A stretch of DNA of 64,000 nucleotides, taken from positions 3,997 to 67,996 of IMG/VR virus record IMGVR_UViG_3300044730_001661, one strand, 5' to 3'. This DNA comes from a virus. The notes below the pieces were generated by a model. It did not search any database. It was not told the DNA's origin and saw only the letters and a program-made list of their open reading frames with translations. The position numbers were made by a program, and so were the translations under genes. Shown one piece after another: positions 1-19,200 of this stretch; the first letter of the stretch is position 1, and the number at the start of each line of letters is the position of its first letter.

Positions 1-222
1 AAGACCACCCGCGTCGAACTCAACGATGCCGAACTGAACATCATTCAGTCCGCACTCTTCGATGGCTTGGTTCGTCTGATGCAGGATTCCAAGTCGTTCG
101 ACATAACGAATCCCGATGATGACGATTTCCTGATGGAGAGCAAGATGGAGGCGCACACCATCAAGGTTCTTCAGGATAAGTTGAAGTTTGCCCTGAAGCA
201 GATCGAACTTGACGGGGCTTGA
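1..222 (+). CDS. Hypothetical early protein, 5' end outside window
   Basis: Frame 1 is open from base 1 (KTTRVELNDAELNIIQSALF...) to TGA at 220-222, with GC3-rich codons like its neighbours. Confidence 0.75.
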   Translation, partial: KTTRVELNDAELNIIQSALFDGLVRLMQDSKSFDITNPDDDDFLMESKMEAHTIKVLQDKLKFALKQIELDGA

Positions 223-326
223 CAGCCCTTTGATGATATGTTACAATTGCCCCGGTGAAATAATTTATTTAAAGTTCTCACCGCTAGGCATTTGACATAC
301 GGCGACCCTCGTAGTATCATTCGGGC
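219..326 (+). promoter_or_regulatory. Tandem sigma70-type early promoters separated by an AT-rich UP-like tract
   Basis: TTGACA-17-TACAAT (219-247), then AATAATTTATTTAAAGTTCT, then TTGACA-17-TATCAT 6 nt before ATG 327. Near-duplicate at 854-962. Confidence 0.85.
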
Positions 327-476
327 ATGTACAGCACCGTCTACCGCCCCGCCCGTTTCGTCCACGAAGCCCTTCGCGGAGGGATCCGCCTCCGTCCCAA
401 GACTTGGGGCAAGAAGTCCCGCGACCCCCGCGCCGCCCGCCGCGCCGCGAAGCGTGACCTGATCCGTGGCACTTGA
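327..476 (+). CDS. Small basic protein (49 aa), leaderless
   Basis: MYSTVYRPARFVHEALRGGIRLRPKTWGKKSRDPRAARRAAKRDLIRGT*. ATG is 6 nt after the -10 box. Below the ORF-track cutoff. Confidence 0.75.
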   Translation: MYSTVYRPARFVHEALRGGIRLRPKTWGKKSRDPRAARRAAKRDLIRGT

Positions 477-507
477 CAGCCCCGAACCCGAAAGGTACAA
501 TTCAGCC

Positions 508-768
508 ATGAAGCGCACCACCAAGTTCGAACTAAACGCCGCCGTCCGTGTTCTCAACCAGTTGGTTGGAGCCAACCCAGTCGCCCACCAGCCCGGAACC
601 TATGTCCTCGCCGGAGCCTACGGCGGATGGCAGTTGCAGCGGATTCAGCCGCTCGGAGGGTACGAGGCGGTCACCACGGGCTACCGCAGCAAGCGGGAAC
701 TGCTCGACCTGATTCACGCCTACCGCGCCGGACTCCGGGAGGGCATGGGTATGCCCCTCACGAACTAA
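508..768 (+). CDS. Hypothetical early protein (86 aa), leaderless
   Basis: TTGACA(473)-17-TACAAT-6nt-ATG; MKRTTKFELNAAV... Confidence 0.85.
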   Translation: MKRTTKFELNAAVRVLNQLVGANPVAHQPGTYVLAGAYGGWQLQRIQPLGGYEAVTTGYRSKRELLDLIHAYRAGLREGMGMPLTN

Positions 769-853
769 CCAATAACCCCCAGCCGAAGAGGAGTCCGCAG
801 TTATGCGGCGATCCCTGCCCCGATTCGTTCGGGGCTAGGCTGTTTATGGGAAC

Positions 854-962
854 TTGACATATGCCAGATCCCATGATACAATTGCCTCGGTGGAATAATT
901 TATTTAAAGTTCTAATCGCTAGGGTACTTGACATAGAATCGACCATCGGTTACAATACGCGC
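854..962 (+). promoter_or_regulatory. Tandem sigma70-type early promoters (second copy)
   Basis: TTGACA...TACAATTGCCTCGGTGGAATAATTTATTTAAAGTTCTAATCGCTAGG...TTGACA...TACAAT, nearly identical to 219-326. Confidence 0.85.
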
Positions 963-1220
963 ATGACACCTCTGATCACCACCACCACCACCGACTCCCC
1001 GACCGTCAAGATCGTCTGCTCCTTTCAGGATCCCGGACAGCGGTACGCGTACCTCTACGGTCGCCTCTGCGGGATGATGATGATGGTGGAGCAGGTCTGC
1101 CGTCAGCACAACAACACCGGGACGAAGATCGACCCGGATGTGTTCACCAACGCGATCAAGGACTACCGCGAACTGGACGAAGCCCTCTTCATCGCCATCG
1201 ACCGCCGCATCAAAGCCTAA
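963..1220 (+). CDS. Hypothetical early protein (85 aa), leaderless
   Basis: ATG 6 nt after TACAAT; GC3-rich ORF; followed by a GC-rich hairpin at 1238-1261. Confidence 0.8.
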   Translation: MTPLITTTTTDSPTVKIVCSFQDPGQRYAYLYGRLCGMMMMVEQVCRQHNNTGTKIDPDVFTNAIKDYRELDEALFIAIDRRIKA

Positions 1221-1311
1221 AGGTTGTGCTCCAACCGGGAGGGGGATCGTTTCCCCCTCCCAACCGTACAAGTGACTTGACAGCCCCGAACCCCGAAGGT
1301 ACAATACGCCC

Positions 1312-1686
1312 ATGAAGAACACCCCGAACCGCCTCACCGAAGTCACCGAACTCGTCGCCGCCCTCGCCTCCTGCGGCAAGCAGATTGACCGCATCCGTTT
1401 CGATGACGAGGAGATCAACGCCACCCTCGCCATGTGCGAGATCGCCATCTCCTTCCCGCCGTCTTGGTTCACGAAGGAGGAGGCGGCTCTCGTCCTCGCC
1501 ATCGTGGAGGTGCTGTACGGCGACAGCAAGAAGTTCATCGACATGATCCACAGCGAGAACCTGTCGTTCTACGCGAAGGCAGCGGAGACTGCGCTGCGGG
1601 AAGCGAACCGCCCGGTCGCCCCGCTGAAGCAGATCGTGGAACGAGCATACGCGGCACACATTGCGAAGTTCGGCGCGGTGTGCTGA
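1312..1686 (+). CDS. Hypothetical early protein (124 aa), leaderless
   Basis: TTGACA(1277)-17-TACAAT-6nt-ATG; promoter nearly identical to the one at 473. Confidence 0.85.
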   Translation: MKNTPNRLTEVTELVAALASCGKQIDRIRFDDEEINATLAMCEIAISFPPSWFTKEEAALVLAIVEVLYGDSKKFIDMIHSENLSFYAKAAETALREANRPVAPLKQIVERAYAAHIAKFGAVC

Positions 1687-1875
1687 AGTCCCATAGGGCA
1701 TGGGACGCCCTCCCTGCCCCCGCAAGGGAGCAGGGAGGAAGGATAAACAACACGGGACGCCCTTGCTAGCGTGGCGTGTCTTAACGGAAGCACATTGCAA
1801 TGGGCTTCTGCAATGGAGGATGCCGTGCCTCCTAAACCTCTGACCCGTTCCTCTTTAGGGCGGGTCATGTTCTTT

Positions 1876-1979
1876 GACTACTATCAGCGTCCCCTCGGGG
1901 ACGCTGATTAATTTTGTTGGACAGGAAGTAATTTAAGGACTTTATTTTAATCAATTTGCATAGCAAATTGATAGTAGTC
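1876..1979. repeat. Symmetric hairpin element, copy 1
   Basis: GACTACTATCA + palindrome ATCAGCGTCCCC-TC-GGGGACGCTGAT; core TGGACAGG; palindrome ATCAATTTGC-ATA-GCAAATTGAT + AGTAGTC. Confidence 0.9.
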
Positions 1980-2113
1980 CGCCCACACACCCGTGTGCAG
2001 CCCAGTTGACAAACAAACAAGGACAGGATACAATTGCCTTGGTCACAAAAATAAAAATACTTCTCCCCGCTTTGCCGCTTGACATAGACGCAACCATGTG
2101 ATACCATGCACGC

Positions 2114-2344
2114 ATGAGCAATTCACCCGACACCAACGACACCGACAACGACATCGACCTCATCCCCTACGATGACACCTTCAACGACGAGGACTTCGTG
2201 GCTGAACTGGTCGCGGAGGGCTACAGCGAGGAGGAAGCCAAGCGCATGGCTGGCGAGTACGAGTTCGATGACGAGGACGAATACTGCTTCGGTGACAACG
2301 ACCGCGACATTCCGGACTTCGTTGACGAGGAGGACTTCGGATGA
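2114..2344 (+). CDS. Highly acidic small protein (76 aa), leaderless
   Basis: TTGACA-17-TACCAT-6nt-ATG; strongly D/E-rich sequence. Confidence 0.8.
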   Translation: MSNSPDTNDTDNDIDLIPYDDTFNDEDFVAELVAEGYSEEEAKRMAGEYEFDDEDEYCFGDNDRDIPDFVDEEDFG

Positions 2345-2649
2345 TCATTAAGGCAGAAGCCGCGTTCCCCGGAACCGCGAGCCGTGGATGGACGACCCGC
2401 AGACACAAGAAGTGCACGGGAAGCATCCTCCATGCCTTGGCTCTCGCGTTCCCGGCTGAACCGGGCATCATGCTCACGCTTGATGTGAGCACGACCTTCG
2501 GCATCGACAACTTCACCTACACGGTGGAGTTTCCGGAGGACACCTCAAAGAACCAGATCGACCTCTTCATCCGACTCGTAAAACAAGTCAAACACTTCTA
2601 CGCCGTGTTCTTGACAGACAACACTTCCCCGGTTACAATGCAGTCATGA
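2341..2649 (+). CDS. Hypothetical protein (102 aa)
   Basis: ATGA overlap with the upstream gene; codon bias like its neighbours. Confidence 0.75.
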   Translation: MIIKAEAAFPGTASRGWTTRRHKKCTGSILHALALAFPAEPGIMLTLDVSTTFGIDNFTYTVEFPEDTSKNQIDLFIRLVKQVKHFYAVFLTDNTSPVTMQS

Positions 2650-2891
2650 GAAAGCCACCGAACAACCGCCCCGAAACCCCGACCACCACCGATACGAGCG
2701 ACCTCCTCAACGAGATCTACAAGTTCGTGGATGACAACCCGAACTGGTACGAGGAGTCCGACCTGATGGCAAAGATGGCGATTGCCCTCTCCGTCCTCAA
2801 GATCGCCTGCCCCGACCCCAACTGCTGCACGGACGAGGAGTATGCGTTCGTGATCGACCTCTGCAAGACCCTCAACGAAAGCATGACATGA
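2646..2891 (+). CDS. Hypothetical protein (81 aa), leaderless from an internal promoter
   Basis: TTGACA(2611)-17-TACAAT-6nt-ATG inside the 3' end of the upstream gene. Confidence 0.8.
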   Translation: MRKPPNNRPETPTTTDTSDLLNEIYKFVDDNPNWYEESDLMAKMAIALSVLKIACPDPNCCTDEEYAFVIDLCKTLNESMT

Positions 2892-3256
2892 GCAAGAACA
2901 AGTTCGACAACTTCTTCAACGACCCGTCCTCCATCATCAAGGACGAGAAGTTTCAGCCCACCTTCGAACAGAAGATCCACGGTCTGATGCTCCTCGTCAG
3001 CAAGCGTCCGGACTGGTACTGCGACCCGGCGATCCGCCTCATCCTCGTCAACATCGTTGCCGATGTGAACAGCGAGTTGCAGGAGATCATGGAGCGTGGC
3101 GAGGAACCCAAGTGCCATGTGTTTGGCGGGGCATTCATGATGCTCCTCAACGACATGATTCGCCTGACGCGGGAGTTCGCCTGTGACGAGGAGAAGCAGA
3201 TGTATGTGGACGGCGAACTGGACGGTGACAAGGAAAACGAGGAAGAAGAGGATTGA
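2888..3256 (+). CDS. Hypothetical protein (122 aa) with acidic tail
   Basis: ATGA overlap; GC3-rich ORF. Confidence 0.8.
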   Translation: MSKNKFDNFFNDPSSIIKDEKFQPTFEQKIHGLMLLVSKRPDWYCDPAIRLILVNIVADVNSELQEIMERGEEPKCHVFGGAFMMLLNDMIRLTREFACDEEKQMYVDGELDGDKENEEEED

Positions 3257-3285
3257 CAAACCCGCGCCCATCGGTTACAATGGGC

Positions 3286-3440
3286 AAAGCCAATGAGCCT
3301 GACCGTAATCCCAGTTGGCGCCCCATAGGGGCAACGCTTCCCGCAAGGGAGAAACTGGTAGGCGCGGCGAATAGCAGTCAAGTCCCGACTGCCGTATGCA
3401 AAGGGTACGCGGGTGGGAACCCGGCTTCAACAGGGTTCCC
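3286..3440 (+). ncRNA. Candidate structured ncRNA in the tRNA-Lys leader
   Basis: Follows TTGACA-17-TACAAT. Nested stems GCCT/AGGC, CCAGTT/AACTGG, GCCCC/GGGGC, TCCC-GCAA-GGGA, GCAGTC/GACTGC, GGGAACCC/GGGTTCCC. Confidence 0.55.
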
Positions 3441-3446
3441 AAATTC

Positions 3447-3518
3447 GCCTTCGTAGCGCAATGGTAGCGCAGTAGACTTTTAATCTATTGGTTGTGGGTT
3501 CGAGTCCCACCGGAGGCA
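3447..3518 (+). tRNA. tRNA-Lys(TTT)
   Basis: Cloverleaf GCCTTCG/CGGAGGC; anticodon arm GTAGA-CTTTTAA-TCTAT; GGTTCGAGTCC T-arm. Confidence 0.95.
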
Positions 3519-3520
3519 TT

Positions 3521-3862
3521 ATGGCGAACGACAAGACAGAACAGAACAAGGCAATGGATCGACTCGCAAGATTGGATGACGAGTTGGATCTTCAGCCCAA
3601 ACCGCAGGACTTCGATGAAAAGATCTTTGCCCTGCAGATGTACGACAGGGTAGCCATCGTGGCAGACCTGATCATGGAGCATTGGCTTGAAGGCAATGCC
3701 AACCCGCCACAGGGACTGATCACCGCCTACTACGATGCCGTAGATCACGCACAAATTGCCCTAAATGGCAAACGGCTTCACGAACAGGTTGTTCCACCCA
3801 ACTCCGACTTCTACGACTCAATTCATTCTAGATTCGGACTTGACAGACGACCAAACGCCTGA
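3521..3862 (+). CDS. Hypothetical protein (113 aa)
   Basis: ATG 2 nt after the tRNA-Lys discriminator; MANDKTEQNKAM... Confidence 0.75.
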   Translation: MANDKTEQNKAMDRLARLDDELDLQPKPQDFDEKIFALQMYDRVAIVADLIMEHWLEGNANPPQGLITAYYDAVDHAQIALNGKRLHEQVVPPNSDFYDSIHSRFGLDRRPNA

Positions 3863-3876
3863 TATAATCAGGTCAC

Positions 3877-3949
3877 GGCACGGTAGACCAACGGCAGAGT
3901 CAGTTGACTCAAAATCAACAAAGTGTGGGTTCGAATCCCACCCGTGCTA
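3877..3949 (+). tRNA. tRNA-Leu(CAA), short variable arm
   Basis: GGCACGG/CCGTGCT acceptor; GTTGA-CTCAAAA-TCAAC anticodon arm; GGTTCGAATCC; own TTGACA..TATAAT promoter upstream. Confidence 0.88.
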
Positions 3950-4078
3950 CTAACGAGATGGATCTTCTTCAAGACCATCCAAGAAGGAAGGGCGAACAAG
4001 TCGGTCAATGGGTTCGCGGAATGTATTAAAATAAAAATGCATTCTTCCCCTCGTACCGTAGTAGTAGCCCTTCCGATT

Positions 4079-4152
4079 GTTCCCGTAGCCCAGCAGGATA
4101 GAGCAGCCGCCTTCTAAGCGGCAGGTCGTTGGTTCGAATCCAACCGGGAACG
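4079..4152 (+). tRNA. tRNA-Arg(TCT)
   Basis: GTTCCCG/CGGGAAC acceptor; GCCGC-CTTCTAA-GCGGC; GGTTCGAATCC. Confidence 0.95.
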
Positions 4153-4293
4153 CCTTGACAACCCCAAAATAGGAGGTACAATGTACCTGAATTGGATTAT
4201 ATTATAATTGAGTTTGGCGGGAACTACAATAACCGCACAGAGGCAACCTGTGGTTGCACGGACACGGGAGCATCCGTAAGAAGGCTCTCCCAC

Positions 4294-4369
4294 GGAAGGG
4301 TGGCTGAATCGTAGTTAGAGCGCATGCCTTATAAGCGTGAATATGTGGGTGCAACTCCCGCCCCTTCCA
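4294..4369 (+). tRNA. tRNA-Ile(TAT), atypical T-loop
   Basis: GGAAGGG/CCCTTCC acceptor; CATGC-CTTATAA-GCGTG; T-loop TGCAACT instead of TTCRANY. Confidence 0.85.
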
Positions 4370-4422
4370 CTAACAAACATCAAGGGCTTGACAGCCCACC
4401 GACCCAACGGTAGAATACCGAC

Positions 4423-4752
4423 ATGAAGACCAACCGCAACGCAATCCCCGACTCCGGTTCCGTGACGATTGGCTCCCACACCTACACCTGGCTGCGGCAC
4501 AAGGATAGCCCCTCGCGCTTCACCCTGACCAAGGATAACTTCGGTGATTGGGATACCGATCTTGACACGCAGGTGGAACTCCCTGAGGTGTTCAACTTCG
4601 TTGACCTCAACGAGGAAAACCTGTACCCCGTCTGCGAGAATTGCCGTGGAGGGTACGTCATTGAGTATGACACCGACTACATCGACCAGTTTGAGTGGCT
4701 CTTCGACTGGTTCAAGGAAAACTTTCCGGCAAACGTGACCGAAACCGCTTGA
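4423..4752 (+). CDS. Hypothetical protein (109 aa, CxxC), leaderless
   Basis: TTGACA-17-TAGAAT-6nt-ATG. Confidence 0.85.
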   Translation: MKTNRNAIPDSGSVTIGSHTYTWLRHKDSPSRFTLTKDNFGDWDTDLDTQVELPEVFNFVDLNEENLYPVCENCRGGYVIEYDTDYIDQFEWLFDWFKENFPANVTETA

Positions 4753-4783
4753 CACAACCCCGAACACAAGGTACAATAGGAAC

Positions 4784-5041
4784 ATGAACATCGACCTCAA
4801 CACGCTCTGCATCGTTGGTCTGTCCGTCACGACCGTTGCCTTCGCCGCTGCCTTCCTCCGCGAGATCATCCGCGACAAGTTCGACTCCGTTCACGACAAG
4901 ATCGAACAGAACACGGTTGACCTCTACTCCGAGCAGGAGAAGTTGTGGAAGCGGGTCACGGACTTGGAGAAGTGCTGCCAGACCCGTTGCAGCCCGTACC
5001 CGACCAACCACATCAAGAACCACTACAACACGGAAGCCTGA
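4784..5041 (+). CDS. Small membrane-anchored protein (85 aa), leaderless
   Basis: TTGACA-17-TACAAT-6nt-ATG; hydrophobic N-terminal segment followed by a coiled-coil-like stretch. Confidence 0.85.
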   Translation: MNIDLNTLCIVGLSVTTVAFAAAFLREIIRDKFDSVHDKIEQNTVDLYSEQEKLWKRVTDLEKCCQTRCSPYPTNHIKNHYNTEA

Positions 5042-5083
5042 ACGAGTTGTCAATGCATTAGTACATAGGCTTCCTCTCATAAC

Positions 5084-5120
5084 CAGAGAGCCCCGGCGCT
5101 ACGGGGCTCTCTGTTCTTTT
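5084..5120 (+). terminator. Rho-independent terminator
   Basis: CAGAGAGCCCCG-loop-CGGGGCTCTCTG followed by TTCTTTT, directly abutting element copy 2. Confidence 0.8.
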
Positions 5121-5213
5121 GACTACTATCAGCCAGCTCTAGAGCTGGCTGATTAAATTGGTGGACAGGATTCAAAGGAATTATAATTTCTTTCAGAAAT
5201 ATTGATAGTAGTC
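5121..5213. repeat. Symmetric hairpin element, copy 2
   Basis: GACTACTATCAGCCAGCTCTAGAGCTGGCTGAT (perfect palindrome); TGGACAGG; AGGAATTATAATTTCT-TTC-AGAAATATTGATAGTAGTC. Confidence 0.9.
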
Positions 5214-5344
5214 CAGAGAGCCACCTGGAGCCACTTGACATAACCTGCGCAGCATGTTACAATGGTCTCGGTATAAAAAATTTATTTACAAAACTTTCTG
5301 TGCGGGTGCTTGACATACAGAAGATTCGGTGGTAAGATTGGGGT

Positions 5345-6703
5345 ATGAGCAGCATCGACATTCGCAAGCGTAACTTCCTCAACGCCCTGTACATCCTGTA
5401 CGGCAACCCCACCTCCATCGGTGAGGCAACCTACACCCGTGAGCAGTGCATTGCCGCAATCGCGCAATCCTACGCTCTCGGAGGGCAGACCTACAGCGTC
5501 CTCCCGGCTTGGCTGACGCAGGACAAGAGCCGCCGCGTTGAGCGCGGCAAGTACAGCATTCCGGAGATGGTCGTGTTGGTTGACGCCATCATCGAAGAAA
5601 ACTCTGATGAAAACTCCACCGTGGAGTTGACAGTCCCCGAAACTTGTGATACCATGAGCAACATGAACAGCAACACTTTCAACCTCGTCGCCCCGTCCTC
5701 CGATGTTTCGCTCGTCCCCGTCAAGAACGACACTTTCGTTCCGTGGGGTCACCACGATGACATCAGCACCATCCTCAAGTCCAAGCAGTTCGCCCCCGTC
5801 TACATCACGGGCATGAGCGGCAACGGCAAGACCACGATGGTGGAGCAGATTTGCGCCGCCTCCGGTCGTGAGTGCATCCGCGTCAACATCACCGCCGAAA
5901 CGGACGAGGACGATCTCATCGGCGGCTTCCGGCTCATCAACGGCGAGACGAAGTTCGTGTTCGGCGGGGTCGTTCAGGCTATGCAGCGGGGTGCGATCCT
6001 GCTGCTTGACGAGATCGACCTCGGGACGGAGCGCATGATGTGCCTTCAGCCCGTCCTTGAGGGCAAGGGCATCTACATCAAGAAGATCGGGATGTTCGTC
6101 AAGCCCGTGCAGGGGTTCAATGTGGTCGCCACCGCGAACACGAAGGGCAAGGGCGAGTCTGACCGCTTTGTCGGGACGCGCTGCATGAACGAGGCTTTCC
6201 TTGACCGCTTCTCGTACTGGTTTGAGCAGGACTACGCGGACAAGACCATCGAAGCGCGCATCATCATCCGCAAGATGAAGGCGTACGGCAAGGAGGACAA
6301 GGAGTTCGCGCAGTACCTCGTCAAGTGGGCGGAAACGATCCGCCTCGGCTTCAAGGAGGGCGGCTTGGACGATATCATCACGACCCGCCGCTTGGAGGAG
6401 GTGTGCAAGGCGTTCGCCATCTTTAGCGACAAGCAGAAGGCGATCAAGTTGACGCTGACCCGGTTCGACCCGGCTACGCAGGAGGCGTTCTACAACCTCT
6501 ACACGAAGATCGACCCGACCATGCTCCCGACCCCGGAGGGCATGAAGGAGGAGAAGCCCTCCTCGCCGGGTTCCTGCTCGACCTCCGATGCTGACGAGAT
6601 CAAGAAGGCGGTCGATGCCGCCATTGCCAAGATGTTCCCGACCTCCACGGTCGTTGATCCCAACCTCACCAACCCCGGCACGGACTACGCCGTGACCGCC
6701 TAA
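5345..6703 (+). CDS. MoxR/CobS-like AAA+ ATPase with N-terminal accessory domain
   Basis: Walker A GMSGNGKT, Walker B LLLDEID, ATANTKG sensor, NEAFLDRF, ITTRRL; typical of the CobS-like ATPases of T4-like phages. Leaderless start. Confidence 0.92.
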   Translation: MSSIDIRKRNFLNALYILYGNPTSIGEATYTREQCIAAIAQSYALGGQTYSVLPAWLTQDKSRRVERGKYSIPEMVVLVDAIIEENSDENSTVELTVPETCDTMSNMNSNTFNLVAPSSDVSLVPVKNDTFVPWGHHDDISTILKSKQFAPVYITGMSGNGKTTMVEQICAASGRECIRVNITAETDEDDLIGGFRLINGETKFVFGGVVQAMQRGAILLLDEIDLGTERMMCLQPVLEGKGIYIKKIGMFVKPVQGFNVVATANTKGKGESDRFVGTRCMNEAFLDRFSYWFEQDYADKTIEARIIIRKMKAYGKEDKEFAQYLVKWAETIRLGFKEGGLDDIITTRRLEEVCKAFAIFSDKQKAIKLTLTRFDPATQEAFYNLYTKIDPTMLPTPEGMKEEKPSSPGSCSTSDADEIKKAVDAAIAKMFPTSTVVDPNLTNPGTDYAVTA

Positions 6704-6727
6704 CCAAGAAAGAGAAAGAAAAAGAAA

Positions 6728-6949
6728 ATGCCATACCTCAACAAGCGCAATCGTTTCGTCACCACCGCCAAGCACTACGCGGAAGTTCACAATCGCCCCA
6801 TCGACTGCTTCACGAAGGCAGACCTCCTCGCCATTGCGAAGTCGATCAACATGAAGGGGATTCCGACTTGGGTGCTGAAGGAACACCGCAGCGCGGTGAG
6901 CAAGGGAGTCTACGATCTCACCTCGCTCATCAACGCGGTTCCCGTCTGA
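6728..6949 (+). CDS. Small protein resembling the ATPase N-terminal domain
   Basis: Shares (F/Y)T(K/R)..., PxW(L/V), Vx(K/R)GxY motifs with residues 1-80 of the AAA protein. Confidence 0.8.
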   Translation: MPYLNKRNRFVTTAKHYAEVHNRPIDCFTKADLLAIAKSINMKGIPTWVLKEHRSAVSKGVYDLTSLINAVPV

Positions 6950-7001
6950 CGGATGCTGTTCATGCCCCTCCCCCCGAATGGGGGGAGGGGCGATAGCGTG
7001 G

Positions 7002-7107
7002 AACTACTATCAAATTCTTCCAGCTTCGCTGGAAGAATTTTTATTGGACGGTATTTAGATTCCTGCAAGGAATTATAATTTTCTGAAAGAAAATATTGAT
7101 AGTAGTT
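7002..7107. repeat. Symmetric hairpin element, copy 3
   Basis: AACTACTATCAAATTCTTCCAGC-TTC-GCTGGAAGAATTT; TGGACGGT; AGGAATTATAATTTTCT-GAA-AGAAAATATTGATAGTAGTT, with a compensatory A/T pair at the termini. Confidence 0.9.
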
Positions 7108-7218
7108 ATCGGACCCACCGATTTATTAAATTTCCCCGGAATTAAATTCTGCGATTATTTGTGCCTCCATGCGGACGAGGTACTTGACATACAGACGGGG
7201 GTGGGTTACAATACGCGC

Positions 7219-9366
7219 ATGAACAAGTCTCTCTCCATCTTTGCCCGCGCCCTCGCCACCGAGAACATCTCCTTTGCTTTCAGCAAGGAGGCGGAAACCG
7301 CATCGTTCGATGTGAAGAACCGCCACCTCGTCCTCCCGGTGTGGGATGTGTCCGAAACCGTGCAGACCATGCTCGTGGCGCACGAGATCAGCCATGCCCT
7401 GTGGACTCCCTACGAGCGCAGCGAGGCTCTGCTCAACGCTGCGGAGAAGGACGGCTACGACCGTACCCTGCTTCAGCGGATCGCCAATGTCGTGGAGGAT
7501 GTTCGCATTGAGAAGTTGATGAAGGCGAAGTACCCCGGTACGCGCCGCGACTTCTTCTTGGGCTACAAGGAGATCTACGAGATCGACCTCTTTGGCTTCA
7601 AGGGCAAGGACTTCAGCGACTCCAACACCATCACCCGCCTGAACCTCCATTGCAAGTGGGGCGTTCCCGGCTTCCTCACCATCGACCTCTCCAACGAGGA
7701 GCAGGGGTTTGTTGCCGACATTGACGCGGCGCAGACCATTGAGGATGTGTACGAGGTCGCCAAGCGCATCTACGATGACAAGGGCATGGACAAGACCCGC
7801 GAGAAGTTTGAGCAGGGCGGTGAGGATCAGCAGCAGGGCAGCAGCAAGACCGACAAGACCGACAAGGCGGACAAGATCGTGGAGGGCAACACGGACTCCA
7901 TCGGCAGGAAGAGCGGAGAAGATTATAACTTTCCTACGGTCGTGATCTCCCCGCTCAAGGACTACCACCGCTGCATCATCAGCAGCGAGATGATCCGCGA
8001 TAGCCTCAAGAACGCGAACACGGGCTACGACAATCCGCTCCCCGCCTACCGCGAGTTCGTCCGCGAGTCCGATGCGTTCGTGCGCCAGTTGGTCGCCCAG
8101 TTCGACCGCCGCAAGGCTGCGGACGAGATCCGCCGGGAGCGTCCGAAGCAGACGGGGATGCTGAACCTTGACCGCCTCCACCAGTACCGCACCCATGACG
8201 ATATCTTCATCAGCAAGATCGTCAAGCAGGACGGCAAGAGCCACGGCATCGTGTTCATGCTTGACTTCAGCGGGTCGATGCAGAGCAACATCCGCGACTG
8301 CTACCTTCAGATCCTCCAGTTGGTGTGGTTCTGCGAGAAGGCGAAGATCCCGTTTGAGGTGTTCGCGTTCACCGACCTCCATGTTCGCGCCCTGATCCCG
8401 ACCTTTGATGCGGACGAGAAGGCGTACTACCGTAACCCGGCGAACATGAACACGCAGTTCAAGCACCCGCTCATGCCGATCCCGGCGCAGGACAAGCCCA
8501 ATCAGATGAACTACGGGCAGGTTGGACTCATGCAGATCGCCTCCTCGCAGGACAGCGCGGAGAAGCGCGAGGAGATCCTTGCCTACCTGTACGGGGCTAT
8601 GGTTGCCGGGACGCACTCTCGCGGCGGTGACTACCTGAACATGAGCGGAACCCCGACCGTGGAAGCCGTTGCGGTGTGCAGCCAGTTCATGCAGGAGTGG
8701 GTCAAGGACAACAACATTCAGATCCCGACCCTCATGGTCGTGACGGACGGCTCCCCCAACGGCATCTGCATGAGGGATTCCAACTCCGACATTCTCTACT
8801 ACGGCTTGGGCAAGCAGGGTTCGCTCACGGTCGTGAACGAGATCATGGGTACGACCCACCAGTTGGACATTGCCGATATGCAGCACCTTGACTTGGGGAA
8901 CGCGATCCTCTACCCGATGTTGGACGCGCTCCGCACCAACCTCAACGCCCGTATCGTTGGGATGTATGTGGGCGGTCAGAGCCTCCATGAGAACGCCTTT
9001 GTGCAGTTCTGCATGGGAGCGCAGGAGCGCATGGCGTACTGGAATCAGCCGTGGAATCAGCGCAAGGATGTGAAGGAGACTCCCCGGTTCAAGGCGGCGA
9101 AGGAAACCTACAACGAGGGCGCGATCATCGTCCACCCCGATACCTTCCCCGGCTACGATGCCTACTTCCTCCTCAAGACCCCGAAGATCGTGAAGGACGA
9201 GGAGGCGTTCAAGGAGGGCAACTTCACGAAGGTCAAGAACGCCTTTATCAAGACGATGGCGAAGCGCGGAGGCTCCCGCGTGTTCCTCACCCGGTATGTG
9301 GATATCGTGGCGGGTCAGCCCCTCAACAAGAAGGGGGACGCCATCTACAACCACCCCGTGTTCTGA
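7219..9366 (+). CDS. CobT-like protein: HExxH metallopeptidase-like domain plus vWA domain (AAA+ partner)
   Basis: AHEISHAL...NVVEDVRIE; MIDAS motif LDFSGSM, GTPT, VTDG. Likely start ATG 7219, 6 nt after TACAAT. Confidence 0.9.
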   Translation: MNKSLSIFARALATENISFAFSKEAETASFDVKNRHLVLPVWDVSETVQTMLVAHEISHALWTPYERSEALLNAAEKDGYDRTLLQRIANVVEDVRIEKLMKAKYPGTRRDFFLGYKEIYEIDLFGFKGKDFSDSNTITRLNLHCKWGVPGFLTIDLSNEEQGFVADIDAAQTIEDVYEVAKRIYDDKGMDKTREKFEQGGEDQQQGSSKTDKTDKADKIVEGNTDSIGRKSGEDYNFPTVVISPLKDYHRCIISSEMIRDSLKNANTGYDNPLPAYREFVRESDAFVRQLVAQFDRRKAADEIRRERPKQTGMLNLDRLHQYRTHDDIFISKIVKQDGKSHGIVFMLDFSGSMQSNIRDCYLQILQLVWFCEKAKIPFEVFAFTDLHVRALIPTFDADEKAYYRNPANMNTQFKHPLMPIPAQDKPNQMNYGQVGLMQIASSQDSAEKREEILAYLYGAMVAGTHSRGGDYLNMSGTPTVEAVAVCSQFMQEWVKDNNIQIPTLMVVTDGSPNGICMRDSNSDILYYGLGKQGSLTVVNEIMGTTHQLDIADMQHLDLGNAILYPMLDALRTNLNARIVGMYVGGQSLHENAFVQFCMGAQERMAYWNQPWNQRKDVKETPRFKAAKETYNEGAIIVHPDTFPGYDAYFLLKTPKIVKDEEAFKEGNFTKVKNAFIKTMAKRGGSRVFLTRYVDIVAGQPLNKKGDAIYNHPVF

Positions 9367-9436
9367 CGGAGAGGGAAGGGAACCCCCCAGGACTGGAAGG
9401 AGAGAGCCAGTCCTGGGGGGCCTCGGGGGAGCTGCG

Positions 9437-9528
9437 GACTACTATCAAATTTCCTTAAAGGAAATTTGATTTTTTACATGGACGGGGCGCAGGAATTATA
9501 ATTTCTTTCAGAAATATTGATAGTAGTC
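9437..9528. repeat. Symmetric hairpin element, copy 4
   Basis: GACTACTATCAAATTTCCTT-A-AAGGAAATTTGAT; TGGACGGG; AGGAATTATAATTTCTTTCAGAAATATTGATAGTAGTC. Confidence 0.9.
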
Positions 9529-9529
9529 C

Positions 9530-10415
9530 CATACCTGGAAGGGGAGACCAGCACGCCAGACTCCTGGTTACCTGCGTGCTCGAGCACCGGCTGGACGGGA
9601 TCTAGCCAAATAATAAATTATTTTAATTATCGGGCACTTGACATAGCGTGCCGTCCCATGGTATAATTGCTCTTGGTGCCCTAATTTAATTTGCTTAACT
9701 CAGGTACGTCCACTGAGGTTATGGGACTTGTGGGTACCTACTTGACAACCCCCATATCTGGTGTATAGTTACCAGACTGTTCATGCGACCGATAACCTCC
9801 CAGTCCCTTGTGACCGATAATCATACCGGCGGGGCTGGGAGTTATCGGGCGTTCACCGTTACCGGACTCGACGGGTCTACGGTTATCGGGCTCAACAAAG
9901 TTTCAAATAATTTTGAAATTTTTATCGGACGGTCTCAGAGTCCGGGAACTACTATCCAGACTACTATCAGGGTCCGATAAGGACCCGTTACAAGCTGGCC
10001 CTGGACGGGATACAAAAATTTTAAGGATCTTATGGGACCCTGGACGGGATATAGAATGCCTGGACAGGATGTAGCTCCATTGTCATAGGACTGTCACATT
10101 TAATAATAATATTGTCATCGATTGGACGGGATAGAGCTCTCCTGGACGGTACCTGCAGGTGGCATTGTCAGTAGGCTCTCAAATATTATCAAAATTTTAT
10201 AAAATTTGTCTTTGTATAGTCGTTGTAGAATCGATTATACGGCGTTTTGTCGTTTAAGAGGCCTCGGGAGGCACTTTAAGGCTTCGGAGGGCTCTGAGGG
10301 GCCTTCTAGGGCTCTTAAAGAGGGTTTAAGAGAGGGGTACTAACTCAATCTTTCTCAAAAATTCTTATAAATTTCTTACCCACCCCACACTCTTTCATAC
10401 CCCCCTTTACCCCAC
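9530..10415. other. Non-coding control region with iterated motifs (candidate origin, terminus or DNA-entry signal)
   Basis: No credible ORF. TGGACRG x6, CCGATAA/TTATCGG x7, ACTACTATC x2, AT-rich palindromes; composition changes across it. Confidence 0.6.
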
Positions 10416-10417
10416 CC

Positions 10418-10822
10418 TTATTCCTCGTCCTCTACTGGCTTTATATTCTCCATATCAGCCTGATCTATGACATACGCTGGTATGGTTTTCTTCTTTTCTA
10501 TTGAATGTGCCTTCTTGATTCTATTCAATCCGTCTGTAATGGAAATAGTCCCGTCCTCTTGTCTTACGCCCAGTACGGGTACGCTGGTATCTGCCTTTTC
10601 CATTCTTGCCTTGTGTTCTTTGTTGTCCATGTCATATTGCTTTTCCCACCATTCTAGTGCGTCGGTATCTTCTATGGGCAAATCTTTTATTAATTTTGTA
10701 TTCTTCTTGGCGTATTCGTAGATGTCCTTGACTCGGTACTTCTTTCCAGTCTCATCGTTTTGGGCGAGTTGCTCGTCCCAATTTTCTACTGCCTCTCTCA
10801 AAAATTCTTTAAATTTCTTCAT
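10418..10822 (-). CDS. ParB/Srx-like domain protein with MKKFKEFLRE N-terminus
   Basis: ADTSVPVLG...ITDGLNRIKKA matches the ParB-like DGxHR core; N-terminus resembles the T4 capsid-targeting sequence. Confidence 0.75.
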   Translation of the reverse strand: MKKFKEFLREAVENWDEQLAQNDETGKKYRVKDIYEYAKKNTKLIKDLPIEDTDALEWWEKQYDMDNKEHKARMEKADTSVPVLGVRQEDGTISITDGLNRIKKAHSIEKKKTIPAYVIDQADMENIKPVEDEE

Positions 10823-11310
10823 ATTGTTATGTCGTTAAGGCTGTCGATCATTCTGAACTTGGGATTCTTGCGGGCCCTTGCACGGATCATGTTGCCTGCT
10901 CTGTCATTTATATGATCTGCATGGGCTTTGATGATATCCCTGAGTTCGTCTGGATCGGTGTTTTTAAATTTGGGTGAACGCCCAACCTTGTTGGTAACTC
11001 TGTAGAGAACATCGAAGAGTGTCGGTTTCTCGTAATCACCCTTCAGGTCAGCGTGCATTGCTTCAAAGTGTTTAGGATCTTCTCCCGTGATGGTGTCGAT
11101 GTGCTTTCCCAATTCTTCTTGATACATTCTCGATTCCGGAGAATCTTCTACGTCTATGTTCGGAAGTTCTGATTTAATAAAACTTAAAAATTGTCCCATT
11201 GGGTGTCTGCGGTGATCCTGCTTCGGTTCCCCTGTCTGGGTAACGATGTTTTTGGGTGTTGCGAGGACGATGTCATTTTCCTCGCTCAGGAATTGAAGAA
11301 AGCTTTTCAT
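10819..11310 (-). CDS. Putative internal head protein (163 aa)
   Basis: MKSFLQFLSEE N-terminus; TAAATA late promoter 5 nt upstream. Confidence 0.8.
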   Translation of the reverse strand: MKSFLQFLSEENDIVLATPKNIVTQTGEPKQDHRRHPMGQFLSFIKSELPNIDVEDSPESRMYQEELGKHIDTITGEDPKHFEAMHADLKGDYEKPTLFDVLYRVTNKVGRSPKFKNTDPDELRDIIKAHADHINDRAGNMIRARARKNPKFRMIDSLNDITI

Positions 11311-11357
11311 GTATGTATTTAGGTTGACTTGGGCTCTTTTGATGGTATGATGTGTGC

Positions 11358-11717
11358 ATGGAAACCAGAGACGTTCGTCGGCTCAAGGCAGAGATCCGTT
11401 ACTTGCGGAACTGCCTGATGGAAGCGTACAACGCGATCCCGACCCTTCCCTGCAATTCGCAGGACTCTTGGAAAGTGGTCAGCCCGATCATGCGAGCCAT
11501 CCGGGAATATCACACATCTTACGATGTCGAGTTCATTCAGTCCACGGTGAATGAAAAGCGCAAAGCCGTATCCGCCCATCTTACCCGCCCGATTACCGCG
11601 TCGGAGTTGGGAGGTACTGATGTTCCTCCTGTCGTTCAGGAGCCGGAACTCACCGTCAAGATAGACTCGTCCTTTATTCCCAAGAATGTTGCGTTGGCGA
11701 AGTCTTTTGGGTTTTGA
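11358..11717 (+). CDS. Hypothetical protein, leaderless
   Basis: TTGACT-16-TATGAT-6nt-ATG; METRDVRRLK... Confidence 0.8.
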   Translation: METRDVRRLKAEIRYLRNCLMEAYNAIPTLPCNSQDSWKVVSPIMRAIREYHTSYDVEFIQSTVNEKRKAVSAHLTRPITASELGGTDVPPVVQEPELTVKIDSSFIPKNVALAKSFGF

Positions 11718-11753
11718 CCTTGACCTGTCCTGACTCGGAGATATACTAGAACT

Positions 11754-12017
11754 ATGGCTACCAAGACCAAGAAAGAAACCAAGTACCACTACTTCTTTAA
11801 TTACGACCGGGGAAACTATTTTCAGATTTCCCGTGGGCTGGAAAAGCGTTACAGCCGCTATTTTTGCGGAAGGGGAATTGGAGTTAGTGGGTTCCACATT
11901 CACTTCTACTGCACTCCAAAGGAGTATAAGCGCATTGTGGCTTGCGCTCGTCGTCGCTACGGCAAGATCAAGAGTGTCACTCGTTATACCGAAGAAGCCT
12001 TTTACGGAGATGACTGA
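11754..12017 (+). CDS. Basic hypothetical protein (87 aa), leaderless
   Basis: TTGACC...TATACT-6nt-ATG. Confidence 0.8.
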   Translation: MATKTKKETKYHYFFNYDRGNYFQISRGLEKRYSRYFCGRGIGVSGFHIHFYCTPKEYKRIVACARRRYGKIKSVTRYTEEAFYGDD

Positions 12018-16251: not shown

Positions 16252-19200
16252 TTATAAATTTGGAAGATAATGGTTGTAAGTTGGGTATGTGCCAAACGTA
16301 TACGATCCAACATTCTTCAATTGATTCAAAATCTCACTATAGTTTGCTGGCTTAATGGAATCAAAAGTTATTCCGTTTGCATAGCGGTCAGTAGGATAAC
16401 ATGGTCCCCAGAAAGGATCGAATACGAAACCATCACGGTCCAAACTTCTTTGAGACAACAGATCTATGGTTCCATCTAAACGAATACCGTAGGCCAAATC
16501 TCCTACGCTTCTGATCCAAGCAAACGGATTATCCAAAATATTATCATCGGCAACAGCAAGCACGGGAATGTTGCTACCAGCTAAAGTGTATCCCGTATTT
16601 GCAGAACCACCACTCAAGACTGGATAATTTCCTGCAGTATCTCCATAAGCAAATACTTTAACAATTACGTCATTTGTGATGTAATTTGTTTCTTTCACCA
16701 TCCACGGTGGTGGGTCCGATGCAGTGCTTCCAAAATAATCAAAATAAGAAAATCCAAATAAAGAGTCGGGTGCAGTTCCATCCAATGGGATTTCATATAC
16801 AGAAAGATATTCTCCATTGACTTTAGGAGGATTACCCCAACCTCCAGAAGTATTTGACATAGATGCTCTAGTATTAAGCCACATTGTGGACTCGTCATAA
16901 GTTTCTAAAGTAGGAGTTGGAATAACTAAACCTGGTGAAAGCGGATTGGGTCCATTTCCTATTTTCCATCTTGAACCACCCGGAGATGCTGGTGCATAAG
17001 CAAAATTAAATATTGGTGAGAATCCATATCTAGAATAATCAAAAGAAGCTGTACCAAGAGTAAAATCACCTTTCATGGTAACTCTACCATGATCCAATAT
17101 TTCTTGAGCGTAATTTGGATTGGTTGTAATATCAAAAATACATGGAACATATACATCATTACCCGCAAACGGAGTCCACGTTCCATTATTACTCAATATT
17201 CCAACCAATCCAGGTCCTCGTGCAGACTCATTATTTGCCAATCCACTACAAAAACGCTGTAGACTTACACATCTCGGGGGAACATAAACCAATTGCTGTG
17301 TATTATTAACTTCCAAAACAACTCCATAAATCATATCATAAAGTTGTTGGTCAAAATTAGAATTTTCTGGATAAGACCAAGTTTGTGAACCAGAATTATA
17401 AGTTGCTGTATAATGTTGTACCCTGCTCAGCAATCTTCTAACATATGGGTTTGAAGTAGCAACATCTTGGAATTTTACTACTTCACACATTTGAGTAGGA
17501 TGTGGAAAAGACGAACGTGAAGGAATATAACCTGTATAAGTTGGGTTGATGCAAGTTGCAACACCCCCACTGATATATCCACCCCAAACGGAGGTCACGG
17601 GGAAACGGACACCATCAATTTTTGGAATAAAGTTTAGAACATAAGCAATCTCCTTGCATGTTCCATTTATTATACTTCCAGTTACAGTACTTCCGCTCCA
17701 AGCATAATATTGCTTAAATTCATCTGGTCTAGCTCCAGGAGGGGGTCCTAAAGGTGGTGTTTCTAGGGTTCCAAATTCAGATGCTCTTCCAGATTCTGGA
17801 TCTTGTGGGTCCACAAATTTATTTTTTTTCTGGTTATATGAATTATAATAGTTGTTAGATCCAGTATTACCAGCTACACTTGTTATTTCGACTCCGTAAA
17901 GGCGACCAGATTTATGAAGGCACCACACATAAATCAAACTACCGAGTAGACCACCGGATACGGTTACTGATACAAAGTCCCTATTTTCTATAGTAACAGG
18001 ATTGTTTTCGTCATCTGTTAAAAACCCATTCGCAATCCAGTCTTCATCAAAATATGTCAAATACTCCCATGCAGCTGAAGTGCTTGCTATTCCCTGTGGA
18101 GTAGTATCGCTATTATACAATATTCTCACAGTTCCATTTTCATCTAACATTGCCAAACATTGATCTGTTGATAGATCAACTGATACCAGATTAATTTCAC
18201 CCGTAGCACCAACATCATCGACGCCATCCATATCCAGATCGTTGCCATATAAACCGGCAACCGGTGCAATTTTTCCTCCATTTGTGAGTACTACTGAATG
18301 GTAGTGACCTGCTCCTAAACGATATGGTGTCTGGTTAACGCCAGTGTATACAGTAGATGGAACCGTTGCCTGATTTGTAGTAACACCATCAAAGTTTGTA
18401 TTCGCTCCCCACGCTACGATAAAATTACCAGCATCATATCCTGTTGGTCCGACCGCCGCTAAAGCATGGGCAGCACCCGCAGCAATATCCACAATTCTGC
18501 CTTGTATTTCGGATGGGACCTCTACTACAGTTCCACCCACTATACTGAGAACACTATTTTCGCCAGTAAATCCCCAAGCATATAGAGTATTATTGATATC
18601 TAAAGCCATTGCAAAATAATCACCGGCTGCAATTTTTTTAATATCTGCAGAGAAAGATGGTCCAGTTAATCCAGACGGTACATCGTATATACCAATATAA
18701 GCAGGAAGATCTCCTGGATCTTTTGCTCCTCCCCAAATAAATATACGTCCAGAATCATTTAAAGCCATGGAATAATATTGACGAGCATCTATCTGTACTA
18801 TATTTCCAAGCCCAGTCATTCCACTCGGGACAGTGCACTGTCCAAAATCATTGCTTCCCCAGCAAATTACATCATTGGTATCTGTTAACACGACGGCGTG
18901 CTTCCAACCTGCGGCAACCTGTGTCACAACCTTGGATGAAAGAGATGGAGGTACGTTTTCTACTACACCCGAAGAACCTGGAGATCTACCCCATACGGAA
19001 ATTTGACCATTTTCTTTGGCTGCAATTGCCCAATCCGACCCAGCGTCTCCACCCATCGCTATATCAATAAAACCGGTACCGGATGGGAGATCGTCACGAA
19101 CTTTTCCAAATAGGTCAAATCCAGTAAATCCTAAAGATCCGTCTATTTTTATTACAAGAGTATTTTTGACGTTAGGGGCAACTTCTTTCAGTTCTCCAAA

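Follow-up and report, generated by a model that had tools for sequence, protein, structure and literature searches.

Inverted word pairs in the gaps after genes are known from bacteria, where repetitive extragenic palindromic (REP) sequences, bacterial interspersed mosaic elements (BIMEs), REP doublets forming hairpins (REPINs) and the terminator pairs of DNA uptake sequences (DUS) and uptake signal sequences (USS) often double as terminators and are read as DNA by proteins; words of these kinds number tens to thousands per bacterial genome, in near-identical copies spread over the whole of it. In T4-type phages, cassettes built on the promoter-early stem-loop (PeSL) were reportedly described by Arbiol in 2010. 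The PeSL (Comeau 2014, PMC4122927) is a stem-loop that leads directly into an early sigma-70 promoter, behind which lie a Shine-Dalgarno sequence and the start codon; the promoter is the conserved part. Mycobacteriophage repressors are reported to stop elongation at many asymmetric sites (PMC9283540). The element described here is located in a 64,000-nt stretch of viral DNA (the window), which comprises bases 3997–67996 of the 67,996-bp IMG/VR virus record IMGVR_UViG_3300044730_001661 (39% complete as estimated by CheckV) and derives, judged by its large genes, from a distant freshwater T4-like myophage. It consists of a short asymmetric word, a palindrome fused to that word, a central GGAC motif and an inverted copy of the word, and the window holds four copies, all in the early region (window positions −3995 to ~10100, or ~14 kb from the start of the record). 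We tentatively interpret the elements as DNA-level boundary marks between early transcription units that serve as the binding site for a putative factor, a reading to which we give a probability of roughly one in three (0.35).

All four copies were found on the plus strand exactly where a previous sequence-only reading of this DNA had placed them. Copy 1 (1876..1979, 104 bp) contains in order the left word, a palindrome with 12-bp arms, a T-rich run, TGGACAG, a second hairpin anchored on the right word, and the inverted word; it matches covariance model R1 at 42.9 bits on the plus strand. In copy 2 (5121..5213, 93 bp) the left palindrome at 5128–5153 is a perfect 26 bp with zero spacer, in copy 3 (7002..7107, 106 bp) the palindrome at 7012–7040 has 13-bp arms and the centre TTC, and in copy 4 (9437..9528, 92 bp) a TTTTTT tract follows the palindrome at 9444–9470, whose 13-bp arms flank a 1-nt centre. 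The arms of 12, 13, 13 and 13 bp and unpaired centres of 2, 0, 3 and 1 nt agree with the 12–13 bp of pairing and 0–3 nt loops previously claimed. The central TGGACRG is present in every copy (starting at 1918, 5162, 7045 and 9479) and AGGAATTATAATTT in three of them (5176, 7068 and 9491), while the mini-hairpin sequence GCGAAGC reported for copy 3 is confirmed on the minus strand only, the plus strand reading GCTTCGC. With up to one mismatch, ACTACTATCA has 11 matches in the window against a mean of 2.82 in dinucleotide shuffles (standard deviation 1.59, maximum 9), and none of 100 shuffles reached 11; the four inverted pairs account for eight exact matches and are the only such pairs in the whole 67,996-bp record. 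Folding of copies 1–4 as single-stranded DNA gave z = −6.9, −5.4, −7.2 and −4.5, with none of 200 shuffles as good for any copy. The earlier proposal of a structured cis element is supported: the element is real, and it has apparently not been described before. Half-sites also occur outside the four copies: CTACTATCC and CTACTATCA stand as tandem forward half-sites on the plus strand at 9948..9969 (starts 9948 and 9960, 12 bp apart) without an inverted partner, and a reverse half-site is located 139 bp upstream of the window.

Relatives of this phage were found through its CobT-like protein, which identified 18 loci, 16 of them at 51–61% identity and two at 34–35%. The window's record and 15 related IMG/VR loci together contain 73 distinct elements of 35–102 bp, picked with no more than one mismatch per 8-mer word, at 4–8 copies per phage; each copy has its own palindrome, and the elements are located at syntenic block boundaries across the relatives. 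A looser pattern detected 52 stretches on 32 viral contigs, against ~7 expected by our own estimate, and the elements are convincing on roughly two dozen of these contigs. On contigs of 117–137 kb the word is restricted to a single early region of 10–12 kb; 15 of 17 word sites in contig G001 and 13 of 14 in contig G002 fall inside the early region, compared to 0–1 for reversed-pattern controls. The general form on the gene strand is R-CTACT-ATC(A/C), a variable arm, a centre, the returning arm, (T/G)GAT, a T-run, (T)GGAC(G/A)G, 0–30 nt and C-(T/G)GATAGTAG-Y. A minimal form, found in locus L028 and in part of locus L020, is a single hairpin of 35–42 bp with the words inside its stem. Exact ten-letter termini separated by a 60–90 nt gap were also sought in IMG/VR and rejected as a search pattern, as all eight loci recovered were AT-rich or coding chance matches. 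A megablast search of window positions 1–12000 against phage records returned zero matches, and in 185,579 bacterial species genomes the element gave 13 single matches (~17 expected, our own estimate), none of which forms a repeat family. An Rfam scan of window positions 1–11000 at E ≤ 1 detected tRNAs and chance matches only, none of them on the element. Searched as text in the literature, the words gave primer matches only among the matches listed, and nothing relevant to palindromes, terminal repeats or early promoters of T4-like phages was present among the matches listed.

The asymmetric word, R-CTACTATC-M (9–10 bp), is conserved as sequence and not as a pair. Positions 1 and 3–8 are invariant in 73/73 elements, although this invariance is partly the result of selection, because of the mismatch limit used to pick the elements. 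Complementarity between the two words is found at position 0 in 38/73 elements and at position 10 in 41/73, so that the covariation previously noted for the outermost base of copy 3 does not hold across the family. Position 2 is T/T or A/A in 10/73 elements, and in L028 the left word has CTAC and the right CAAC in 7/7 copies. Such arm variants are lineage-specific and the same across all copies of one genome, as is expected if the sites track one trans-acting factor. The word is also found unpaired: nearly all relatives have a conserved solitary forward site after their last element, and in the window and in L020 this site is present twice, 11–12 bp apart; locus L022 has a collapsed CTACT-GAT-AGTAG together with extra or direct GATAGTAG sites at element positions; and the distant loci L029 and L030 have solitary GTACTATC sites beside the short word TTATCGGAC. 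Because the variable positions are not kept complementary and the words also stand alone, they appear to be read as sequence, and their reader would most simply be a putative protein acting on duplex DNA.

In the palindrome the sequence varies while the pairing persists, and the constraint looks DNA-level. Perfect anchored stems of at least 10 bp are present in 50/73 elements, as compared to 0.07% of 1460 shuffles. A covariance model was built from 14 copies and pairing was counted on its 33 best matches, in which 369/369 cells are Watson-Crick with zero wobble, in an alignment fitted to the model and thereby favouring pairing; paired changes are seen in 9 of 12 pairs (97 cells) and a one-sided change in none, and the covariation score is 0.69, against 0.19 when shuffled and ≤0.15 with partners slid. 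The palindromes of the relatives have thus been renewed by paired changes rather than decaying without compensation. The full-length model matches lie on the gene strand except for two, and the whole 73-element set contains only 15 G-T pairs among 671. The centre has 0–1 unpaired nt, with the symmetry running through it, in 31/67 palindromes, and a 0–1 nt centre was likewise found in 31/66 of a wider viral contig set that partly overlaps the first; among the hairpins just upstream of the elements (stems of at least 6 bp), only 1/64 has such a centre and 19/64 have four-base loops. The loops of these upstream hairpins include GCAA, GAAA, GAAT and TTCG, many are followed by T-runs, and they look like ordinary RNA terminators. 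Where two elements have identical arms and differing centres, the centres are an exact reverse-complement flip in 2/5 pairs (AGAC/GTCT and A/T), and two paralogous minimal copies in L020 differ by a G/C centre flip. Complementarity inside the loop is useless to an RNA hairpin, yet is a product of DNA template switching. The symmetry through the centre, the centre flips and the near-zero wobble therefore indicate a constraint at the DNA level, in support of the earlier suggestion that loops this small suit recognition in DNA better than in RNA. An intrinsic terminator has a GC-rich stem, a loop of 3–8 nt and a U-run on the transcribed strand; the mean stem GC of the palindromes is 0.47. At least five T in the 8 nt following the palindrome are found in 33/57 non-minimal elements, and the T-run is missing in 10 minimal elements and 18 others; given the T-runs and the strict polarity, the palindrome may also terminate RNA that reaches it.

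The order of features around the elements is always terminator hairpin, element, promoters. Copies 1 and 2 are preceded on the plus strand by terminator hairpins with T-runs at 1841..1867 (hairpin-1) and 5084..5113, and copies 3 and 4 by GC-rich hairpins at 6964..6991 (tetraloop GAAT) and 9383..9420 (conserved 10-nt loop AAGGAGAGAG), also on the plus strand, with 9–19 nt between hairpin and element. Downstream on the same strand, copy 1 is followed by tandem sigma-70-like promoters at 2006..2107 (one at 2006–2034), the second leading into a leaderless ATG at 2114; copy 2 by tandem promoters at 5235..5338 (one at 5235–5263) and a leaderless cobS-like gene from 5345; copy 3 by a promoter at 7184..7212 and a leaderless cobT-like gene from 7219; and copy 4 by a promoter at 9638–9667. 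The sequence-only reading was therefore correct in describing each copy as lying after a hairpin and before promoters. Its statement that the elements fall at transcription-unit boundaries holds for these four, but many boundaries carry no element, as the 27 promoter-like sites compare with four elements. The distance from element end to the next −35 box is 27, 22, 77 and 110 nt for copies 1–4, and this unfixed spacing argues that the word is not part of the promoter. A role for the word or TGGAC as part of a −35 or −10 box was likewise rejected, since the distance from TATAAT or from the following −35 box varies; a promoter-like score is found in copy 4 only (TTTACA-18-TATAAT), and the relatives lack the TATAAT. 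The word was also rejected as a late promoter, a place held by the T4-type TATAAATA upstream of minus-strand genes, and as an integration host factor (IHF) or DnaA box, the consensus sequences of which it does not fit. A terminator scanner flags the hairpins of copies 1 and 4 as terminator-like. In one RNA run, from one study and available as contigs only, contigs end near 1878, 6956 and 9413, where the hairpins preceding copies 1, 3 and 4 lie, and none of the pieces listed covers an element, although an uncovered part of such data proves nothing. The hairpin after the cobT-like gene keeps its AAGGAGAGAG loop in at least eight relatives while its stem covaries; this loop is Shine-Dalgarno-like, though the early mRNAs of the phage are leaderless. 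The PeSL (PMC4122927) resembles the present arrangement in being a composite terminator-promoter module of T4-like phages, repeated in the intergenic gaps between small early genes of a variable region. The present locus differs in having an extra module between terminator and promoter, with inverted words and a DNA-type perfect palindrome of its own, in having leaderless mRNAs without a Shine-Dalgarno sequence and an element 22–110 nt from the −35 box, and in its conserved block order, with no element-bounded indel seen among the 15 joints listed of 34.

What the data show is how the elements are built and conserved, their polarity, their DNA-type symmetry and where they lie; binding of the word by a protein, extrusion of the palindrome and a roadblock or insulating outcome are what we infer. 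The putative factor, probably encoded by the phage, would read the word as sequence in duplex DNA, and the near-perfect palindrome fused to the left word, different at each site, would be able to form an extruded hairpin or cruciform. Its T-run would make the palindrome a fail-safe terminator wherever it is transcribed. With the inverted words bracketing the palindrome, bound factor and hairpin together would block RNA polymerase that has passed the real terminator, and the next promoter would be insulated, or the early units shut off, as by repressor-bound "stoperators". A phage-protein loading site was among the alternatives offered by the sequence-only reading, and it is the interpretation favoured here, the binding itself being putative. 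The stoperators of the cluster A mycobacteriophages (PMC9283540) are similar in having many copies of a short asymmetric word in phage intergenic DNA and in targeting elongating RNA polymerase, which is the target proposed here. They differ in being single, in one orientation and bound by the known immunity repressor of a temperate phage; the present T4-like phage is of the lytic type, its words flank a palindrome as inverted pairs, and their reader is putative.

Several observations weigh against a boundary mark bound by such a factor. Pfam and PHROGs scans of the small early proteins in the window's record and the related loci found no word-binding protein or DNA-binding domain, the only matches being WYL_2, DUF7178 and DUF3846. 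The spacings between inverted words are continuous (35–102 bp), unlike those of cooperative dimer binding on duplex DNA, and a roadblock gives no reason for a perfect palindrome between the words. The T-runs after the palindrome fit a purely RNA-level terminator as well, and since many unit boundaries in the window have no element, the element is not needed for insulation generally. A host factor is also possible as the reader of the word. As a separate observation, the only early protein with a nucleic-acid-related Pfam match is a small basic protein of cluster G, whose WYL_2 domain is an Sm-like SH3 barrel; it is located at 1585–1857 of L031 (the record upstream of the window) and 2152–2565 of L021, and conserved counterparts are present in 13 loci, the distant L029 and L030 among them.

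The element could instead act at the RNA level, the palindrome and T-run serving as a fail-safe intrinsic terminator and read-through folding the whole element into a processed hairpin comparable to the RNase III sites between T7 early genes, with the words as an RNA recognition or stability motif. The T-runs in over half of the non-minimal elements, the scanner calls on the hairpins of copies 1 and 4, the strict polarity with transcription and the 9–19 nt distance from the upstream hairpin are all in keeping with this. It is nevertheless a doubtful account, as wobble is absent from the 369 cells of the model and nearly so from the 671 pairs overall, and the loop symmetry of 31/67 palindromes would be purposeless in RNA, the adjacent terminators having loops of the GNRA and UUCG types. 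The elements without a T-run (10 minimal and 18 other), word arms that do not covary, solitary and direct-repeat words that are unable to pair, and zero Rfam family matches argue in the same direction. Template switching characteristically leaves palindromes that are symmetric through the centre and whose centres flip, and a quasi-palindrome model of this kind is said to have been developed by Ripley in T4. The palindromes might on this account be by-products, made from flanking DNA by switching that starts next to a binding word, and tolerated in non-transcribed gaps though functionless in themselves. The right-hand TGAT, or even the inverted word as a whole, could then be a mirrored copy of the left one. 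We consider this very unlikely, given that the palindromes are kept at syntenic sites in phages whose CobT proteins are 51–61% identical while their sequence turns over by paired changes, and that the constant order of T-run, GGAC and right word, together with the strict polarity, argues for selection.

Cassette excision or shuffling at sites of the attC or REPIN kind had been raised by the sequence-only reading, and exchange of gene blocks might proceed through a hairpin-binding recombinase or through cruciform cleavage and homologous repair. The architecture is attC-like, with inverted core words around a variable structured centre over 35–106 bp and, as in the integron, a centre kept in structure and not in sequence and one site per gene block; perfect palindromes are prone to form cruciforms. 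However, the early region has a map common to nearly all loci, EL – J(O)I – EL – N/V(Q)GL – EL – E(P)HF-t-D-ttt(M/U) – EL – cobS-B – EL – cobT – EL > array (EL, element; t, tRNA; letters, clustered plus-strand open reading frames), and the block order is the same in at least 15 phages at the CobT divergence given above. The window's record lacks two elements present in relatives and L022, L029 and L030 lack the element before cobT, as exchange might produce, but gene gain and loss are located within blocks. Among the 15 joints listed of 34, none has both ends at elements, and a population indel joining 4367 to 4747 in two DNA runs ends at a tRNA and a promoter. Gene content that varies with breakpoints at the element was not observed in this material. 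No match to the Y1/HUH transposase family (Y1_Tnp, PF01797) or to the tyrosine recombinases (Phage_integrase, PF00589) was detected in four records that are 39–76% complete, with controls positive in 6 genomes and in 14/14 genomes, respectively. No target-site duplications were seen at the four copies, and the interiors of copies within one genome are not near-identical. Conserved block order and the lack of a detected recombinase thus give no support to cassette shuffling, and recombination sites are a distinctly improbable identity for the elements. The attC core and the REP GTAG layout are not matched by the words, and integron attC sites further differ in having imperfect palindromes with extrahelical bases and promoterless mobile cassettes, where the present palindromes are perfect and the blocks have their own promoters and a fixed order. 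REP, REPIN, DUS and USS words are alike in forming short inverted pairs downstream of genes; here, the 4–8 copies of a phage all lie in one region and no two share a palindrome, and the transposase associated with REP and REPIN (RAYT, REP-associated tyrosine transposase) has no Y1 counterpart in the four records. A miniature inverted-repeat transposable element (MITE) is not resembled either, as duplications are lacking, interiors differ and positions are syntenic across divergent phages. In favour of exchange, PeSL cassettes reportedly mediate indels in the variable early region of T4-like phages (PMC4122927), and the element is located in such a region. A last alternative concerns the genome ends: in two DNA runs from different years, the depth of contigs that match the window at 100% identity is about two-fold higher to the left of 9419 than to the right of 9500 (25–33 against 15 and 11–16 against 6–9 for 1–9419 and 9500–12000, contig means only), and the DNA contigs of both runs break at copy 4, where depth falls about two-fold rightward. 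The cause of this step may be a long direct terminal repeat, or else GC bias. If the early region were a T5/SPO1-like direct terminal repeat of at least 13 kb, the elements could be cis signals for staged DNA entry, for end protection in the manner of Chi- or uptake-like words, or for duplication or replication of the repeat. Restriction of the elements to the early region and the presence of the word in both orientations, as needed by a repeat used at both genome ends, are consistent with this, and DNA entry retains some probability because of the two-fold depth. At the depth step, however, GC falls from 55% to 45%, making sequencing bias possible, nothing links the dispersed copies, as opposed to the terminal array described below, to DNA entry, T4-like phages normally package by headful, and two-step DNA entry is not known among them; on balance we find this alternative unlikely. 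The left terminal repeat of T5, including its injection stop signal, is similar in that conserved non-coding inverted repeats and palindromes are dispersed in an early region with their order kept while genes diverge, and the block ending the present early region resembles its conserved repeat regions, one of which straddles the repeat boundary (bioRxiv 10.1101/866236). The T5 repeats are long composite blocks with DnaA boxes, and in the present phage a terminal repeat is a candidate only.

The early region ends in a non-coding block at window positions 9940–10420, which is found in the same place in loci L014–L028. An array of five YTGGACRGGAT-type direct repeats on the plus strand at 10002..10149 has the same GGAC word as the element centres and opens this ~500-bp conserved non-coding region. 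Across the loci, the block contains one or more forward half-sites, four to seven YTGGACRGGAT repeats, an AT-rich stretch with repeated TTGTCAAAA, a TTGAC..TATAA motif and G-rich GGGCY repeats, a composition that makes it a candidate replication origin or repeat boundary. The GC content is 54–57% in the early region and 36–48% in the remaining record. The junction between the early and low-GC parts was found again in more than ten independent contigs and is therefore no assembly chimera. The early genes lie on the plus strand except for two, and their products are small ORFans. A sigma-70-like promoter scan of window positions 1–10500 gave the 27 sites mentioned above against 5.5 expected, and most early mRNAs are taken to be leaderless because in most early genes the ATG is located 6–7 nt past the −10 box (TACAAT). 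A cassette of two tandem promoters, separated by a conserved spacer (GGTGGAATAATTTATTT ... TATCGTTGGGGTAC) and with a leaderless ATG after the second, is repeated at 1470–1590, 2440–2480 and 3140–3250 of L031 and at 853–960 and 5234–5340 of the window. The word TTATCGGAC, in either orientation, is located upstream of promoters at window positions 9783–9980 and in the intergenic DNA of relatives, often followed by an A6 tract ~55–75 nt ahead of the start. Between copies 1 and 2, a tRNA cluster at 3447–4370 (Lys-TTT, Leu-CAA, Arg-TCT, Ile-TAT) is syntenic in relatives, and the 4367-to-4747 variant lacks a promoter and a 109-aa open reading frame (4423–4752), with 16 other letters in their place. 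The assignment to the T4-like myophages is consistent with a family B DNA polymerase (PolB) with 43% identity to cyanomyophage counterparts, a ribonucleotide reductase, tail fibres, and T4-type TATAAATA late promoters directly upstream of minus-strand genes; the CobS/CobT-like pair has 45–55% identity to pelagiphage and cyanophage proteins. A 1390-aa protein with RCC1 repeats is encoded at 16252–20424 and a collagen-repeat tail-fibre protein at 61483–63804. The runs containing the window stretch are lake-water metagenomes.

A lineage of roughly two dozen viral contigs thus keeps a word and a self-renewing palindrome at the same block borders while its genes diverge, a conservation that marks a trans-acting factor and an undescribed regulatory or DNA-handling step. 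This bears on early-gene control in many uncultured T4-like phages of lakes, and the contrast with the adjacent RNA-type terminators offers a clean and testable instance of hairpin signalling at the DNA level by a phage with a double-stranded genome. A T4-like lineage whose host-takeover genes lie within a long, GC-rich direct terminal repeat, punctuated by a word and an extruding palindrome through which a phage factor would control the entry, protection or copying of the genome ends, is an improbable picture at present; if it is true, the elements would be a dispersed structure-plus-sequence DNA signal without a described counterpart in T4-like phages. Should the two-fold depth represent a terminal repeat, the view of genome ends in this T4-like group would change.

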